Assembly: GCA_038124565.1 (NCBI GenBank)
Contig: JAYPCE010000004.1
Coordinates: 1-60,999, forward strand
Direction: 5' to 3'
DNA length: 60,999 nucleotides
Source: Poseidonia sp.
GTDB lineage: Archaea > Thermoplasmatota > Poseidoniia > Poseidoniales > Poseidoniaceae
Under the pieces are notes generated by a model that was not told the DNA's origin, did no database searches, and saw only the letters and a program-made list of their open reading frames with translations. Shown one piece after another: positions 20,235 to 49,152 of this stretch. Positions within the stretch are counted from its first letter, which is position 1. Each line of letters starts with the position of its first letter. Both the position numbers and the translations under genes were made by a program.

Positions 20235-20708
20235 TTACTTCACATCCTTGAGCGACATCCCCGCCATTCTAAGCACTTCTTCAAAGTGGGCTTGAGAAAC
20301 AGATTGGACCGACAAGCGCTGCCCCTTTTGCAACAGGGCCATTCCTTCAAGAGCAGCATTGGCACGCATATCGTCCAACGAGACCATGGGAATTTCGCAG
20401 ACGGGTTCAATGTCCACCATGAACCAACGTGGTGTTTCGGGTGTTGATTTCTCATCAAAATACTTGCTTGATGCGTCCCAGGATGTAAAATCAGGATACC
20501 CTTTACGAACAATTCGGGCAACACCGCCAACATGCGGAGGCTTGGTGTTGGAATGGTAAAACAAAACCAAATCTCCTATGTTCATCAAATCTCGCATCGT
20601 GTTTCGGGCCTGATAATTCCGTACACCATCCCAGTGGGTTTGCCCGTCTTTCACCAGTTGTGCATAAGGATACACATCCAATTCTGACTTCATCAACCAA
20701 TGGTTCAT
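20235..20708 (-). CDS. EVE (PUA-like) domain protein
   Basis: The ATG at 20708 gives MNHWLMKSE..., with HWDGVRNYQARNTMRDLMNIGDLVLFYHSN and GVARIVRKGYPD, typical of EVE/THYN1-like domains. Confidence 0.8.
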   Translation of the reverse strand: MNHWLMKSELDVYPYAQLVKDGQTHWDGVRNYQARNTMRDLMNIGDLVLFYHSNTKPPHVGGVARIVRKGYPDFTSWDASSKYFDEKSTPETPRWFMVDIEPVCEIPMVSLDDMRANAALEGMALLQKGQRLSVQSVSQAHFEEVLRMAGMSLKDVK

Positions 20709-20746
20709 GGTCCATCGGAGAAGCAAGAGGTCTATGGATTACTCGC

Positions 20747-23779: not shown

Positions 23780-23945
23780 GTGGGCACCTTACTTTGTGCG
23801 ACACAACGGCCCTTCAAAGCCTTACCTTTGAACAGCATGTCAAGCAGGCCGAATTGAACTGTCTTGGGCCGACGGGTTGAAATGATGACCCTCATCCCGT
23901 GGGTTGGACCCTCCTCATTTACCGAGGCGGGGCCAGGTGAGGCAC

Positions 23946-26439: not shown

Positions 26440-27573
26440 TCATTCCTCCTCAACATGGAGGGTTGTTTGGCGAGAGAGCGGGACCTCCAAATGACCCAAA
26501 CGAAAACCGATGAGACGGATGTTCCTGTCCGAGTCAACATTCGTGGCAAAGAGGTGTTGTGCAAGTCGTTTGAACACCGAAGGGTCGTCCATAGCCACGG
26601 GAATACTCCGGCCTGCTGAATGGGTTTCAAAACCGGTGTACCTGATTTTGACCTCACCTAACCGACCAGAAACCCCCAGACCTATCGCACGACCCATGAC
26701 GGCGTCCACCAGGTCGGTCAACCGGTCGAGCACCACCTCATGATCGCTCCTGTCCTGCTCAAAGGTATGCTCTTTGCCGATGGATTTGCGACTTTGAAGA
26801 GGACTAACATCGCTGCTGCTTTCACCCTCCACCACCGTCATGAACCATGAGGCAAAGCGCTCACCGGCAAGACGGGAAAGCGATAATTCACCTAGTTCGT
26901 GAAGTTCGTCTGCGGTCGTGAACCCCCATTCAGCCAGTTGCTGGGCGCGTTTTGGACCTATGCCGGGAATTTCTCTCAAAGATCGCCCCTCAAAGAACGA
27001 TTTTACCTCGTCGGGCATCACACGGAAAATACCGTTGGGTTTGTTCACTTCGCTGCTCATTTTCGCGAGAATCCGAGTGGGTCCAATACCGAACGATGCC
27101 GTGAGACTCAAGTTCGCAAAAATTTCCTGCTGCAGGGATGTTGCGAGTGCAAAAGCAGCGTCCCAATCACCCTTCACACGTTCCGTGACGTCAAGATATG
27201 CCTCGTCAATGCTGGCCTTTTCAAACAAATCGGCTTCCCTGCGCAAGGACTGCATCACCTTACGACTCGCTCTGCTGTAAAGCCCCCGCGTTCCTCGAAT
27301 GTAACATGCAGGACCAAACGGTGCTGCCGGACACCTGCGCCAAGCCTCTGAAATGGGCATGGCGGAATGGATGCCGTATGTTCTCGCCTCATAATTGCAC
27401 GTTGAAACGATGCCGCGACCTCGGCCTTGCTTTGGGTCCGAACCAATGATGAGTGGCACAGATGGGTCAAAGCCATGGTGCAGTGTTTCTACGGCCGCAA
27501 AAAAAGCGTCCAAGTCACAATGGATGATGATGCGACCCTCAGCCGCGGACGGGTTCTTTTCCAGTTCACCCAC
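26440..27573 (-). CDS. dinB: Y-family DNA polymerase IV (DinB/Dpo4-like)
   Basis: Catalytic blocks are intact: IIHCDLDAFFAAVE and SIDEAYLD. Also present are STCNYEARTYGIHSAMP, the HhH motif IPGIGPKRAQQL, and a little-finger domain. The start is GTG at 27573. Confidence 0.85.
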   Translation of the reverse strand: MGELEKNPSAAEGRIIIHCDLDAFFAAVETLHHGFDPSVPLIIGSDPKQGRGRGIVSTCNYEARTYGIHSAMPISEAWRRCPAAPFGPACYIRGTRGLYSRASRKVMQSLRREADLFEKASIDEAYLDVTERVKGDWDAAFALATSLQQEIFANLSLTASFGIGPTRILAKMSSEVNKPNGIFRVMPDEVKSFFEGRSLREIPGIGPKRAQQLAEWGFTTADELHELGELSLSRLAGERFASWFMTVVEGESSSDVSPLQSRKSIGKEHTFEQDRSDHEVVLDRLTDLVDAVMGRAIGLGVSGRLGEVKIRYTGFETHSAGRSIPVAMDDPSVFKRLAQHLFATNVDSDRNIRLIGFRLGHLEVPLSRQTTLHVEEE

Positions 27574-27600
27574 ACATCATTTCCTAAGCCAAAGGTGCTT

Positions 27601-27623
27601 GAACTTGATGCATCATTCAGTTC
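27601..27623. promoter_or_regulatory. Imperfect palindrome in the dinB / imuA-like divergent intergenic region (candidate operator)
   Basis: In GAACTTGATGCATCATTCAGTTC the core TGATGCATCA is a perfect 10-bp palindrome, flanked by GAACT...AGTTC arms. It lies in the 98-bp spacer between the two divergent start codons. Confidence 0.3.
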
Positions 27624-27671
27624 AACAAAGGGGTGTAGAGAACGATTGATGACCTCCGATGGTGACCGTCC

Positions 27672-28457
27672 ATGATTGACATGACTGACATACCAAGCGG
27701 CGCAGCACGGACACATATCATCAAGCCACCTCTCCAAGAAGTGGACCTCTCGCTGGTGTCACCCCAAGCTGGACAACTCTACCATTTGTCTGGCCCCGGA
27801 CACGCTGGACGCGGCATGCGCCCCGTAGCGGAGCATTGGGTGGTTGAAGCGTTGGTCCGAGGAGAAGTGGTGCATTGGGTAGATGGCGCGTGTCGTATTG
27901 ACCCTTCGCGTCTTCTTCCTGCACTGGCTGAACGAAACGCAGACACCGATGCGTGCCTTTCCCGCCTCTACTTGAGCCGAGGATTTACATTGCATCAACT
28001 CGACCGGCAACTTGAGCGTCTTCCTCAAGAATTGGCCATCACACGTTCGCCTTTGGTGGTGATCGACGGATTGCTGGCCATGCATGGGGACGATGCCATT
28101 CGACGAATTGAATCAAGAGTCTTGTTACGACGCCATCTTCAGGTGATGCAAGACATCGCTGAACGACAGCACAGAGCAGTGGTCGTCATCACGGAATCAA
28201 CCACCAATGACTCGCATCATCAACGTTTGATTCAATGTATTCATCGTCATGCACAAAACCATCTCGTTGGTCACTGGCAGGGTTCGCGACACAAACGAAT
28301 GCTCCATCTACACCATCCACGAACCGGTTTGCGAGGCCTCTGGCGCAGCACACCAAAAAGCGAGCAGACCAATCTTGTCCTCACGTATCACCCCGCACAT
28401 CTTCAGGTATTTTCGGCCTCGGTGGGCTGTTTGCCGTTGCTTCACGAAAAACGTTGA
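27672..28457 (+). CDS. Degenerate RecA-fold protein, ImuA/RadB-like (hypothetical)
   Basis: This 261-aa ORF is the only long ORF in the interval. It has a Walker-A-like LSGPGHAGRG (K to R, S/T to G), VHWVDGACRIDPSRL, LSRLYLSR, a Walker-B-like SPLVVIDGLLAMH, and RAVVVITE. The layout resembles ImuA/RecA-core proteins. Its 3' end overlaps the convergent PolB gene by 77 nt. Confidence 0.5.
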   Translation: MIDMTDIPSGAARTHIIKPPLQEVDLSLVSPQAGQLYHLSGPGHAGRGMRPVAEHWVVEALVRGEVVHWVDGACRIDPSRLLPALAERNADTDACLSRLYLSRGFTLHQLDRQLERLPQELAITRSPLVVIDGLLAMHGDDAIRRIESRVLLRRHLQVMQDIAERQHRAVVVITESTTNDSHHQRLIQCIHRHAQNHLVGHWQGSRHKRMLHLHHPRTGLRGLWRSTPKSEQTNLVLTYHPAHLQVFSASVGCLPLLHEKR

Positions 28458-30882
28458 AGTCGTACAGTGTTGGCTGGCGTCCAACGCCACGCAAGTCTTC
28501 CTCGGTCCATCCAAAGGGCGCAAGAATCGCCCACACAGCCCGTTCGGCGAGGGTGGTGTAGTGGGTGAGACAGGCCGTGGTCGTTACAGGAACCGAAGGA
28601 AGTTCTTCGGCAAGAACGACCCTATCCAACGGCTCAGACGCAGAAACATCCACGACAACATAGCGTATTTTTCCACCAGGTGGTACATGATGTCCTTGCA
28701 GATGAGCGCGCATGAGCGCTGCGTAGGTGAGGTTTTTCACGCGGTAATTGCCCAGCGTGGATGTCACGCGTCGCGTCACGACGAGAGCGTCGAGCGGAAC
28801 TTCACGGCGTCCAAGACGCTGGCATTCTGTGCGGTACAACCGCAACACCTGTTGTTGCCCTTTCATGTCGGGAATCCCGTTGACACGACCACTTGACGCA
28901 AGGACCTGAAGGGCTTGCTCTTGAAGTGTACCAATCCAAGAGGGCGTGGAGTGTTGGCGCATTTCAATGCCTCTGACCTTGAATTCACCACCACCGTATG
29001 CCCAATACTTGGTCAGCGAACCTGTTCCGTGAACTCGACTTGGAAGAAACGCAATGAAGTCGTAATGTTGCTCCAATTCCAGCGGTATACCGATGAGCGT
29101 TGTCATGCGTTCAGCAAATGCTGCGGCATCATGCTGCTGTTGCTCACGGGTACGCTGGGCTCGGTCAAGTAACCACACACAATCAACAATGGCGTGGAGA
29201 ACATCCCATCCCGCATGTTGCGCTTCCTCAATGGTCGTGAGCAAAATGTCGCGAGACCACGCACAAATTGCCTCGTGCGCTTCGATGCGCCCAAAACGAG
29301 CATTGCGATAACCTGTGTAGCCAAAGCAGGTAACAAGCAACCATTTGAGAGCGTTTTGCCGCAAGTCAAAGGCATCACCTTTCTTCTTACGTTGACGTTT
29401 GAGTACGCTGCGACGCTCGATGATGGGAGCGACCACGCGACCCAAGAATCCATGCCGACGCCCGCAGGTATGGCTGCTGAGACCTGGTACACGCAACGCT
29501 TTCTCATGCGCCATGGGGAACAACCCGTGGCCAAATTGTGAGCGTAACCGCCGATTTCGAAAATCGGCTTCTGCATCGGACGGATGCAAAGGAACGATGC
29601 CTGTGTTGTTCGCCTCTGAAGGTGGTTGACAGCACGCACAATTCAATGTCTCCGGGGAGATATTTCGTGTCGCAATGATGCTTGGAAACAGGCTGGCAAA
29701 ATCAAGTTCGATGACCGAGGCATACACGCCTGGACGGCTGTCAAGGTACAATCCCCCCCGGTCTGCCTGCAGAAGTTCCAAGGCAGACTTGGTGTCTTCA
29801 GGACGATTTTTCTTCCATGGAACAAGGACGCCATCGTCCATGGCCACACGCATTTGTATCGCACTGATGACCGAACCCGGAGAAAGACGCGAAATGACTT
29901 GAGCAGATTGACATGAATGTTGAGCCAATTCGAACAGACCGGCGGCTCCGCCTTCTTTGACGATGAAACTGTTGCGTAAATCAAGGTGCAAACGGCCTTC
30001 CAAAAAATAGGCACCGTGACGATGCAACGTGTGTCCATACGACTGTACGGTTCGGGCTTGTGTGGACGGTGAGAGGGGAGTTGATGTTCGTCCGAGACGT
30101 ACCTCGCACCCGAGCCGTTGACCTTGTTCTACCAGCCACGGAAACAAGCGTTGGTCACCACCGTATGTCAACACAACATCGGGATCAGAGCGGTCATACA
30201 GATGCTGAAACGCCTCCAACATGGACGCAAACGAATCGAAATCCTCCCGCAAAAGAACCGTTTCTTGCACGGGATGAAGGGCCCTGAGAAAGCCTGGTTC
30301 TCGGACCGGTTTGAGACGAAACGCGTGCACGGCATCGTGCAACGAGGGAAGACCATGCGATGGAGCAAAATCAATGGCCAACTGAACCACGCGAAAAGGA
30401 GGAAACATGTCCACCTTTACGGGGGTTGTCGCCGCCATTGTACGCAGTTCATGGCCGTCCCAACGCACACGTGAAAACGGCTCGCACTGATGTTCATTCA
30501 GGAAACGCTGGGCCAAGTGCGCATCAACAGAAAAGAGCGTGTAGCGATGAAAATCTCCTCGTGCTTCGATGTGCTCGGCAAGCGCTCGTAAATGACGGAA
30601 TGGCTCAATAAAAACTTCCAGCACCTTGACCCTGTCGTCACTTTCCAAATCCAGCCGCATGGACCGAGTAGAGACCCCCTTGATGCCGAAACGTGCGGCA
30701 ATTTCGGGTTGACGCAACCAATGTGTCAAATGTCCAAGTTCACGGGTTGAAGCATGGACATGGAGACTTGCTCGCCACGGTATCTCGCAACCGTGTGCCG
30801 AGCCTTCGTCGTCAACAATCCAAACCACCATGCCTGTTTGCGAACGGTTTTCATGAAGGTCCAACAACCACCCTTCAATCAT
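28381..30882 (-). CDS. Family B DNA polymerase, divergent (exonuclease motifs degenerate; PolB2/Dpo2-like in character)
   Basis: Pol motif A is VIELDFASLFPSII and the KxY motif is SLTKYWAYGG. Motif B is degenerate (RQNALKWLLVTCFGYTGY) and motif C is VLHAIVDCVW instead of YGDTDS. Exo I is LAIDFAP (DxE becomes DxA), Exo II is TYGGDQRLFPWL (FD lost), and Exo III is QHSCQSA (Y...D lost). The ATG at 30882 (MIEGWLLDLHE) is preferred over the listed TTG at 30900. Confidence 0.8.
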   Translation of the reverse strand: MIEGWLLDLHENRSQTGMVVWIVDDEGSAHGCEIPWRASLHVHASTRELGHLTHWLRQPEIAARFGIKGVSTRSMRLDLESDDRVKVLEVFIEPFRHLRALAEHIEARGDFHRYTLFSVDAHLAQRFLNEHQCEPFSRVRWDGHELRTMAATTPVKVDMFPPFRVVQLAIDFAPSHGLPSLHDAVHAFRLKPVREPGFLRALHPVQETVLLREDFDSFASMLEAFQHLYDRSDPDVVLTYGGDQRLFPWLVEQGQRLGCEVRLGRTSTPLSPSTQARTVQSYGHTLHRHGAYFLEGRLHLDLRNSFIVKEGGAAGLFELAQHSCQSAQVISRLSPGSVISAIQMRVAMDDGVLVPWKKNRPEDTKSALELLQADRGGLYLDSRPGVYASVIELDFASLFPSIIATRNISPETLNCACCQPPSEANNTGIVPLHPSDAEADFRNRRLRSQFGHGLFPMAHEKALRVPGLSSHTCGRRHGFLGRVVAPIIERRSVLKRQRKKKGDAFDLRQNALKWLLVTCFGYTGYRNARFGRIEAHEAICAWSRDILLTTIEEAQHAGWDVLHAIVDCVWLLDRAQRTREQQQHDAAAFAERMTTLIGIPLELEQHYDFIAFLPSRVHGTGSLTKYWAYGGGEFKVRGIEMRQHSTPSWIGTLQEQALQVLASSGRVNGIPDMKGQQQVLRLYRTECQRLGRREVPLDALVVTRRVTSTLGNYRVKNLTYAALMRAHLQGHHVPPGGKIRYVVVDVSASEPLDRVVLAEELPSVPVTTTACLTHYTTLAERAVWAILAPFGWTEEDLRGVGRQPTLYDFNVFREATANSPPRPKIPEDVRGDT

Positions 30883-31144
30883 CGCAACGACCTTCTTCAA
30901 GCGCCTGCAGTCGTTGGCTGAGTTGCTCGTTACGTACCGCCAACCCCACCAACATGTTGAGCAACATCATGTGCCAGGTATCGATGGCTGGAAGCATCCC
31001 CCCGGCTGCACGACGCTGGCGAACATCGTTGAGCAACGCGTCGAAGATGGCGTGTTCTGATATCGGCAAGGCTCGCCTGTATGGAACAAGTCGTTCCAAT
31101 TCCGCTTCCACTCGTGTTCGCCAAGGAGGTACACTTCGGCCCAT
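30875..31144 (-). CDS. Small helical hypothetical protein, translationally coupled to the PolB gene
   Basis: An 89-aa ORF with an ATG start at 31144. Its TGA stop (30875-30877) overlaps the PolB ATG (30880-30882) in ATGATTGA. The sequence is Arg/Leu-rich and looks helical. No family recognised. Confidence 0.45.
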   Translation of the reverse strand: MGRSVPPWRTRVEAELERLVPYRRALPISEHAIFDALLNDVRQRRAAGGMLPAIDTWHMMLLNMLVGLAVRNEQLSQRLQALEEGRCDD

Positions 31145-31208
31145 AGCGACGAGAGATGCGAGAACATCCTCTTCCTTTTCTCAGACCCAGAAGTTGAAAG
31201 TGAAAGTG

Positions 31209-40978: not shown

Positions 40979-41053
40979 TGGAGCCACCGGCGAGATTTGA
41001 ACTCGCGACCTCCTCATTACCAATGAGGTGCTATACCCCTAAGCCACGGTGGC
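40979..41053 (-). tRNA. tRNA-Thr (anticodon GGU), CCA encoded
   Basis: Hand-folded cloverleaf: acceptor GCCACCG/CGGTGGC; anticodon arm CCTCA-TTGGTAA-TGAGG; T arm GCGAG-TTCAAAT-CTCGC. 75 nt including the 3' CCA. Confidence 0.9.
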
Positions 41054-42788: not shown

Positions 42789-42875
42789 TGGCGCCGAGAG
42801 AGAGATTTGAACTCCCGAGGGAACGGGCCCACGCGATTTCCAGTCGCGCGCACTACCAGGCTATGCGATCTCGGC
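42789..42875 (-). tRNA. tRNA-Ser (anticodon GGA), long variable arm, CCA encoded
   Basis: Hand-folded: acceptor GCCGAGA/TCTCGGC; D arm GCAT/GTGC; anticodon arm CGCGA-CTGGAAA-TCGCG; 15-nt variable arm; T arm GGGAG-TTCAAAT-CTCTC. 87 nt. Confidence 0.9.
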
Positions 42876-47252: not shown

Positions 47253-47350
47253 GACCCTGCCTTCATCGCCCCAAACATGAAGCCTTGCACCAGGTCTTGC
47301 ATAGGAGGATTGAAACACAAGCGGTCCAGCGGTGGAGGTGAGGGTGTCCC

Positions 47351-49108: not shown

Positions 49109-49152
49109 TCCACCGAAAAGACGCTCTTTGACCCTTGCGTTTCAAAACGTGC

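Follow-up and report, generated by a model that had tools for sequence, protein, structure and literature searches.

What kind of system is encoded by four adjacent genes at positions 26440-31144 of a 61-kb stretch of DNA (hereafter the window) from a Poseidonia archaeon, a member of Marine Group II (MGII)? A preliminary description had read them as a translesion "mutasome" made up of a Y-family polymerase (DinB), an ImuA-like protein with a RecA fold, an exonuclease-dead family-B polymerase and a small protein coupled to the latter, and had known of no described RecA-fold partner of such a polymerase. Makarova et al. (2014, PMC4104785) had, however, predicted an operon in which PolB2 is joined by an inactivated ATPase of the RadA family and a helical protein of ~90 amino acids (aa), arCOG07300, and Timinskas, Timinskas and Venclovas (2025, PMC11791011) named the two partners iRadA and PPB2 and modelled a PolB2:iRadA:PPB2x3 complex as the "PolB2 mutasome"; since both papers describe iRadA, that statement has to be withdrawn. 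From motifs, homology and gene context we consider it very probable that positions 27672-31144 encode the Poseidoniales version of this archaeal PolB2 mutasome. The mutasome idea is supported, then, for the published trio of PolB2, iRadA and PPB2, and not for DinB as a member. The system is already known, this clade included, and is no new kind of machine; an upstream element resembling the DNA damage-responsive element (DDRE) of the Sulfolobales appears to be the only part that is unreported.

The four open reading frames (ORFs) are those of DinB, or DNA polymerase IV (Pol IV; 26440-27573, minus strand, 377 aa), iRadA (27672-28457, plus strand, 261 aa), PolB2 (28381-30882, minus strand, 833 aa from its ATG, or 839 aa from an alternative TTG start at 30900) and PPB2 (30875-31144, minus strand, 89 aa). 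Their adjacency and coordinates are as first described, as is the 98-bp spacer (27574-27671) between the divergent DinB and iRadA genes. The iRadA gene does converge on the polymerase gene, the two 3' ends overlapping by 77 nt (28381-28457), and the stop codon of the 89-aa ORF does overlap the polymerase ATG, the PPB2 3' end and the PolB2 start having 8 nt in common (ATGATTGA). Homologues of all four ORFs are conserved in at least 50 species-level genomes each, so that these reading frames are more than chance. Scans for Rfam families and tRNAs gave no match in the four-gene region.

The polymerase gave its best scores with the NCBIfam models NF004418 and NF004416 ("type B DNA polymerase"; 1e-111 and 5e-107), compared with 3e-25 or weaker for the NCBIfam PolB1 and Pol II models, and by BLASTP it is 65% identical to the published MGII PolB2 MBN29951 (E 7e-180) and 31% identical to S. 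islandicus Dpo2 (E 3e-31). A homologous-protein search with this sequence listed only Poseidoniales-like proteins. As the reference for the exonuclease motifs and motif C we used Pyrococcus abyssi PolB, in the form of a PDB chain that carries the exo-minus mutation D215A. In this alignment Exo II of the window protein reads YGGDQRLFPWL, with the catalytic Asp replaced by Leu; the wild-type Pyrococcus motif is YNGDNFDFPYL. Motif A (DFASLFPS, beginning at D394) is intact, and motif C is I565-V566-D567 where Pyrococcus PolB has DTD. The degenerate exonuclease and the single aspartate of motif C noticed earlier are thus real, and the protein is not an ordinary replicative PolB with intact motifs. 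It keeps the aspartate of motif A, the lysine of motif B and, in motif C, the second of the two aspartates; its HAIVD aligns with HSIID of S. islandicus Dpo2. The published diagnostics of the family include a PPB2 MGRT arm with Arg3 and Arg9 and a D(K/R) motif of PolB2 that contacts this arm (253-DK-254 in S. islandicus; PMC11791011). In the window polymerase D374-R375, within LQADRGGLYL, aligns with MMADKGGLIL of S. islandicus Dpo2, i.e. with the family ADKGG motif, and DRGG is the consensus among 34 diverse PolB2 representatives. By these features the protein is identified as a PolB2/Dpo2-type enzyme with a dead exonuclease domain. Near its C-terminus lies a box like those of PCNA-interacting proteins (PIP box), QPTLYDF (residues 803-809; 28456-28476, minus strand), which probably binds PCNA; Q-x-x-L-x-x-F is present in 50 of 52 Poseidoniales PolB2 C-termini, with K in place of Q at the two divergent loci L047 and L049. 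In one related metagenome-assembled genome (locus L005, 5489-7989) PolB2 aligns as two pieces with a 12-nt gap near residue 518, for which a small indel, a frameshift or faulty assembly may be responsible.

The product of the 89-aa ORF begins with the arm MGRSVPPWR, with Arg3 and Arg9, and this N-terminus is nearly invariant across 22 homologues. BLASTP gave 61% identity with a PPB2 published for Poseidoniales (E 1e-33). The AlphaFold2 model is all-helical, with a free N-arm and helices at residues 7-25, 28-46 and 57-88 (predicted local distance difference test, pLDDT, 72.8), and Foldseek with this monomer returned no match at E below 3. The local Pfam and NCBIfam libraries gave no match for the ORF either; its homologues bear the precomputed Pfam family PF26485, which is newer than our local Pfam-A copy and not in it, so that the null local scan reflects the date of the library rather than orphan status. 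We identify this protein by its sequence as PPB2 (arCOG07300), a small helical partner of PolB2 whose translation is predicted to be coupled to that of PolB2.

The 261-aa ORF scored 24.6 bits against Pfam Rad51 (gathering score 22; 1.7e-5) and 1.2e-5 against RadB, and BLASTP aligned it from end to end with the published MGII iRadA MBN29950 at 53% identity (E 6e-85). Its homologues form 68 clusters, the named ones being from Poseidonia and other Thermoplasmatota. An AlphaFold2 model built with 25 homologues (pLDDT 82.5, confident core at residues 20-227) has as its top Foldseek matches in the PDB RAD51, RadA, DMC1 and RAD51 paralogues (E ~1e-11, probability 1.0). Because these are the best structure matches, the modelled protein is placed in the Rad51/RadA lineage and not with ImuA/RecA: it is iRadA, a core of the Rad51/RadA type lacking the N-terminal domain. 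The preliminary description was right, then, in seeing a RecA-superfamily fold with a degenerate Walker A, which reads GPGHAGRG (G41-G48; 27792-27815), and wrong in likening it to ImuA. The sequence VDGA sits at the position of the RadA catalytic Glu. At the C-terminus there is a conserved L-x-L-H-H motif, encoded inside the overlap with PolB2 and opposite the poorly conserved PolB2 tail; the 3' overlap itself is found in all 52 Poseidoniales sequences and ranges from 9 to 167 nt, with a mode of 62.

The trio also stays together across the clade. In a sample of 51 species-level loci, all from Poseidoniales as are all named homologues, iRadA(+)/PolB2(-)/PPB2(-) is present in 51 of 51. In 49 of these, as far as the contigs reach, it stands within one block in the order aminoacyl-tRNA synthetase(+), DinB(-), iRadA(+), PolB2(-), PPB2(-), dehydrogenase(-) and membrane protein(+). 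The two exceptions, the divergent loci L047 and L049, also have the trio in this convergent order, with other flanks and without DinB; at L047 these flanks are an enolase/beta-propeller pair and an aminotransferase. One contig labelled "Verrucomicrobiales bacterium" (NZEQ01000045.1, locus L022) carries the full Poseidoniales synteny from the synthetase through DinB and iRadA to PolB2, with protein identities of 78-87% for the synthetase and DinB and 58-69% for iRadA and PolB2, and is probably a mis-binned archaeal contig.

The supplement of the 2025 study already holds MGII and Poseidonia complexes, filed under operon group 3b (PPB2-PolB2-iRadA), and the AlphaFold-Multimer model given there for orthologues from Poseidonia sp. 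is ranked with a score of 0.83 (PMC11791011, supplementary file 2). Table S1 of that paper lists, for 95 group-3b operons, the neighbours IMS (46), 2-Hacid_dh_C (45), tRNA-synt_1 (42) and Lactamase_B (32). These flanks match the neighbourhood in the window, so that the four-gene arrangement is already in the published tables, with DinB left undiscussed in the text (PMC11791011). The locus studied here shares with group 3b all diagnostic motifs, the overlap of PPB2 with the PolB2 start, the placing of iRadA after PolB2, and 53-65% identity to Poseidoniales/MGII members. No difference at the level of the system was found; what sets this lineage apart are details, namely the convergent iRadA with its 3' overlap, the PIP-like box of PolB2, a Walker A consensus in about half of the iRadA proteins of the clade, and a tandem ANTTTC element in the promoter region.

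In the Sulfolobales the DDRE core 5'-ANTTTC-3' is bound by Orc1-2 and is required for induction, and Sulfolobus dpo2 is damage-induced in an Orc1-2-dependent manner and was proposed to encode a translesion polymerase (PMC6061795); promoters were not analysed by Timinskas et al. (PMC11791011). The PPB2-PolB2 genes of the window are preceded on the minus strand by an element at 31183-31208 consisting of CACTTTCACTTTCA (31208-31195), which contains two tandem ANTTTC cores, 6 nt, and GGGTCT (31188-31183). With its ACTTTC cores it is the sole tandem ANTTTC in the 61 kb. From the stop of the dehydrogenase gene to the start of PPB2 there are 64 bp here, a length nearly constant across loci, and the blocks upstream of PPB2 are 80-99% conserved as against 30-50% for neighbouring columns (44 distinct sequences). 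Of 47 Poseidoniales loci, 44 have strict ANTTTC upstream of PPB2 and 35 have it there in tandem, the background being 1.3e-3 per nt; these loci are related, so that the counts are not independent events. The element is also present in L047 and L049 behind a different upstream gene, which argues that it travels with the module.

A related arrangement lies in the spacer between DinB and iRadA, where the plus strand has GGTGCTTGAACTTGAT (27594-27609), TTCAGTTCAA (27616-27625) and GGGGTGT (27630-27636), together with an inverted repeat TTGAACT-N13-AGTTCAA. Across loci the corresponding blocks are GGTGYTTGAACTTGAT, TTCAGTTCAA and GGGGTCT, again 80-99% conserved, as against 30-50% for the flanks (49 distinct Poseidoniales sequences). 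The second and third of these follow one another as in the PPB2 element and at about the same distance, the layout TTCAsTT(T)CA-N-GGGT being common to both, and the composite pattern matches the sites upstream of PPB2 and iRadA and little else in the loci; two further matches inside coding regions of the window were judged to be chance. Strict ANTTTC in this spacer is at background level in both orientations (49 loci). The Poseidoniales element can be written as CACTTTCA(C/A)-N-GGGTCT. A box (C/T)TTTGAA(A/C) was also seen 28-68 nt upstream of many starts in the window, e.g. at 23870-23900, 47300-47350 and 49109-49150, and may serve this organism as its TATA-like core promoter element.

Beyond the Poseidoniales we compared 80 further PolB2 loci, comprising 36 from Thermoplasmatota, 27 from Bathyarchaeia, 3 from Halobacteriota, 2 from Hadarchaeota, 3 from other TACK archaea and 9 from Bacteria. 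A de novo search in 180-nt windows upstream of the operons gave the motif CACTTTCACnnnnCTCTCTCC, 20-22 nt long and usually 25-35 nt upstream of a TATA-like box; an attempt to train on whole 1400-nt upstream regions was discarded, as it converged on coding sequence (the MGRTVPT codons). The layout of the motif is that of the Sulfolobus consensus AATAGTTTCRGWDTACTCWS, i.e. ANTTTC-N6-CTC, and its carriers are Thermoplasmatota, Methanomassiliicoccales, Methanoperedens, Bathyarchaeia (with the variant ACTTTAAC), Hadarchaeota and one crenarchaeote. At 16 bits or more the model matched in the upstream window of 28 of 51 loci where 0.06 were expected, and seven times elsewhere in 1.02 Mb; matches of at least 14 bits outside the operon windows lie mostly just upstream of an iRadA, PPB2 or PolB2 gene whose start had been misassigned. 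The pattern ANTTTC-N6-CTC, taken from the literature and fixed beforehand, was sought within 1400 nt upstream of PolB2; it occurs 16 times in the 71 archaeal loci, where 2.1 would be expected (Poisson p ~1e-9), and is found in 12 of 36 Thermoplasmatota loci (p 4e-11) and in 0 of 9 bacterial loci. In the control for the Sulfolobales, which was one crenarchaeal locus (L132) and not S. islandicus itself, the top match of the model (2228-2249) stands ~30 nt upstream of PPB2. One Methanoperedens locus (L068, 1010-1031, minus strand) has a match of 20.8 bits before a divergent superfamily 2 helicase with GAGKT and DEVHH, XPB-like by these motifs alone, which hints that the element may mark a wider repair regulon. 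We found no report of ANTTTC outside the Sulfolobales in the searchable literature.

It can be hypothesized from these patterns that a damage regulon of the Orc1-2/DDRE type extends across the archaea and has the PolB2 module as its conserved core target. Its element would be CACTTTCAC-N4-CTCTC, which has the ANTTTC-N6-CTC layout of the experimentally defined Sulfolobus DDRE; the tandem-core variant of the Poseidoniales would drive PPB2-PolB2, and iRadA, transcribed separately, would be driven by a degenerate copy that shares the GGGTCT block. This deserves serious consideration, though on balance we lean slightly away from it. As a weaker addition, DinB might have been drawn into DDRE-type control in Poseidoniaceae via the shared bidirectional spacer.

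Several observations weigh against the reading of this locus as a PolB2 mutasome and have to be set beside it. The iRadA gene is on the opposite strand, which means that the trio is not a single operon here. The label "inactive" may not apply uniformly to iRadA of this clade, half of which has a canonical P-loop: GxxxxGK[ST] (e.g. GPGRSGKS) occurs in 26 of 52 Poseidoniales sequences, while the window protein and several others have GPGHAGRG and further variants exist, so that nucleotide binding may be kept in part of the clade. When the Poseidoniales iRadA alignment was compared by hhalign with the single S. islandicus iRadA sequence no signal was obtained; the unity of the iRadA family rests on fold, context and published analysis. 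As for the promoter, the 22-nt cross-phylum model misses the sites in the window, its best window matches lying elsewhere at 13.7 bits or less. The Poseidoniales share only the 5' core with the cross-phylum motif, their 3' block GGGTCT being shifted by ~3 nt, and the extended ANTTTC-N6-CTC layout does not occur in the window, where the tandem core upstream of PPB2 is present and conserved. Lastly, since TTGAA/TTCAA-like boxes look like general promoter elements, part of the conserved DinB/iRadA spacer may be ordinary core promoter.

DinB has the Pfam domains IMS (2.4e-35), IMS_C (9.4e-17) and HhH and a score of 265 bits against the NCBIfam Pol IV equivalog NF002677 (cutoff 256). Its acidic blocks, HCDLDAFFAAVE (DLD) and SIDEAYLD (DE), are intact as had been noted, and HCDLDAFF is kept at every locus with a recovered DinB N-terminus, so it is apparently an ordinary, catalytically competent Pol IV. 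The C-terminus has a conserved RQTTLFEEE, in the window RQTTLHVEEE (26440-26470). The best family match of DinB is to a bacterial-type Pol IV model and not to an archaeal Dpo4-type one, and the Q-x-x-L-F tail resembles the bacterial beta-clamp motif more than an archaeal PIP box. One could suppose that Poseidoniaceae have a four-component module, in which a DinB inserter and a PolB2 extender are co-regulated with iRadA from the 98-bp bidirectional promoter. The divergent DinB(-)/iRadA(+) adjacency in 49 of 51 loci speaks for this, as do the strongly conserved spacer blocks with the inverted repeat, which could be a shared operator for the two genes, the conserved Q-x-x-L motifs that end both DinB and PolB2, and the rank of IMS as 15th most frequent neighbour in Table S1 of Timinskas et al. 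However, the synthetase, the 2-hydroxyacid dehydrogenase and the membrane protein are as conserved in place as DinB. With the whole seven-gene block equally conserved, adjacency to DinB counts for no more than adjacency to unrelated genes and reads as clade synteny. The trio also occurs without DinB in L047, L049 and nearly all other lineages, and outside group 3b there are 4 IMS neighbours among 1375 in group 1a, and none in groups 1b, 2 or 3a (Table S1, PMC11791011). On the DinB side of the spacer the GGGTCT block is missing, and strict ANTTTC in the DinB orientation occurs in 3 of 49 loci, which is background level; in Sulfolobus the Y-family Dpo4 is not damage-induced together with Dpo2 (PMC6061795). 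A four-component module is therefore unlikely. We regard DinB as a conserved, lineage-specific syntenic neighbour, for which an inserter/extender partnership with PolB2 is possible and membership in the complex is unsupported.

The parallel first drawn with the bacterial ImuA-ImuB-DnaE2 cassette, in which the 261-aa protein would be an ImuA/RecA homologue and DinB an ImuB, is one of architecture: here too a replicase paralogue without proofreading stands beside proteins of the Y family and the RecA superfamily. As homology it is refuted by the sequence comparisons and has next to no probability left, since the 261-aa protein matches Rad51, RadA, DMC1 and RadB and not RecA or ImuA, the polymerase belongs to family B, the Y-family protein is a catalytically intact Pol IV equivalog, and the module is conserved without DinB in L047 and L049. 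As an analogy the comparison is valid for the trio alone, and the one drawn in print is with Pol V. A different doubt concerns activity, as PolB2 has lost the first motif C aspartate and its exonuclease residues and could be a dead scaffold that regulates replication initiation or fork processing together with iRadA and PPB2; a replication-regulation or origin-related role was raised by Makarova et al. (2014, PMC4104785) from arORC2 neighbours. Yet S. islandicus Dpo2, which has the same xxD motif (IID), is an active enzyme, the main polymerase for translesion synthesis (TLS) and extension, and is required for targeted mutagenesis (PMC11791011; PMC8764526), and the catalytic residues that the window PolB2 retains in motifs A, B and C point the same way, so that a dead scaffold seems very improbable, more so than the four-component module. 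An origin from a casposon/pPolB or another mobile element was also considered and rejected, given the stable chromosomal synteny, the housekeeping flanks and the lack of an integrase.

If the locus is the PolB2 mutasome, the genetics and biochemistry of Sulfolobus and the published AlphaFold models, which include Poseidonia orthologues, suggest how it might work. PolB2, iRadA and PPB2 would form, as in these models, a PolB2:iRadA:PPB2x3 complex, in which one PPB2 N-arm (MGRS...R9) would insert between PolB2 and iRadA, beside D374-R375 and the DNA. A loop of PolB2 would bind iRadA by mimicry of the RadA oligomerisation motif, in line with the published model, in which the PolB2-iRadA contact resembles RadA oligomerisation, and recruitment by PCNA would probably go through the conserved QxxLxxF box at the PolB2 C-terminus, a clamp-binding motif on either iRadA or PolB2 being part of the published description (PMC11791011). 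The iRadA of the window lacks the catalytic set needed to hydrolyse ATP. The assembled complex could then extend mispaired or lesion-containing primer termini, with the adjacent DinB perhaps serving upstream as the lesion "inserter". By analogy with the Orc1-2-bound element of the Sulfolobales, the tandem ANTTTC cores make it likely that PPB2-PolB2 would be damage-inducible.

Among better-known systems, the Dpo2 system of Sulfolobus/Saccharolobus has in common with the Poseidoniales trio the xxD form of motif C (IVD here, IID there), the D(K/R) motif, the MGRT/MGRS arm of PPB2 and an ANTTTC core ~50-65 nt upstream of the first gene. It differs in that PolB2 is 31% identical and iRadA cannot be aligned by sequence profile, and in that the Sulfolobus DDRE is ANTTTC-N6-CTC whereas the Poseidoniales element is two tandem cores plus GGGTCT. 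E. coli Pol V (UmuD'2C-RecA) has the same outline, a catalytic TLS polymerase that an oligomerisation-like motif links to a RecA/Rad51-family protein, plus a small oligomeric subunit whose N-arm inserts (PMC11791011), but its polymerase is of family Y and not B, its small subunit is unrelated, and it employs the active cellular RecA rather than a dedicated degenerate paralogue. ImuA-ImuB-DnaE2 likewise combines a dedicated RecA-superfamily accessory protein with a non-proofreading paralogue of a replicative polymerase in damage-induced mutagenesis, while its C-family polymerase, RecA-lineage ImuA, dead Y-family adaptor ImuB and LexA control have no counterpart here. Eukaryotic Pol zeta (Rev3-Rev7x2-Pol31-Pol32) is another TLS extender of family B that has several subunits and an inactivated exonuclease domain, but its accessory subunits are unrelated and none is of the Rad51 family.

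The module is flanked by housekeeping genes. Upstream, a class-I aminoacyl-tRNA synthetase and an MMPL transporter are encoded together with a stand-alone EVE-domain (PUA-like) protein of 163 aa (20235-20726, minus strand), an aminotransferase and a serine hydroxymethyltransferase; the EVE-domain gene lies between those of the transporter and the aminotransferase. The downstream flank has genes for a D-2-hydroxyacid dehydrogenase, a membrane protein and a protein of the metallo-beta-lactamase fold. Two RNA genes, and no others, were detected in the window: tRNA-Thr(GGT) at 40979-41053 and tRNA-Ser(GGA) at 42789-42875, both on the minus strand.

For the organism, these results mean that the Poseidoniales, abundant and uncultured archaea of the sunlit ocean, carry a complete PolB2 mutasome beside an apparently active Pol IV. 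The value of this is confirmatory: a system first identified by specialists in 2013-2014 and modelled in 2025 was here recovered from raw sequence. The upstream element may reach further. If it is a true damage-response site, an Orc1-2-type regulon known only from the Sulfolobales would span archaeal phyla, and CACTTTCAC... would provide a sequence handle for finding the regulons of the ultraviolet response in uncultured archaea, in genomes as well as in metatranscriptomes.

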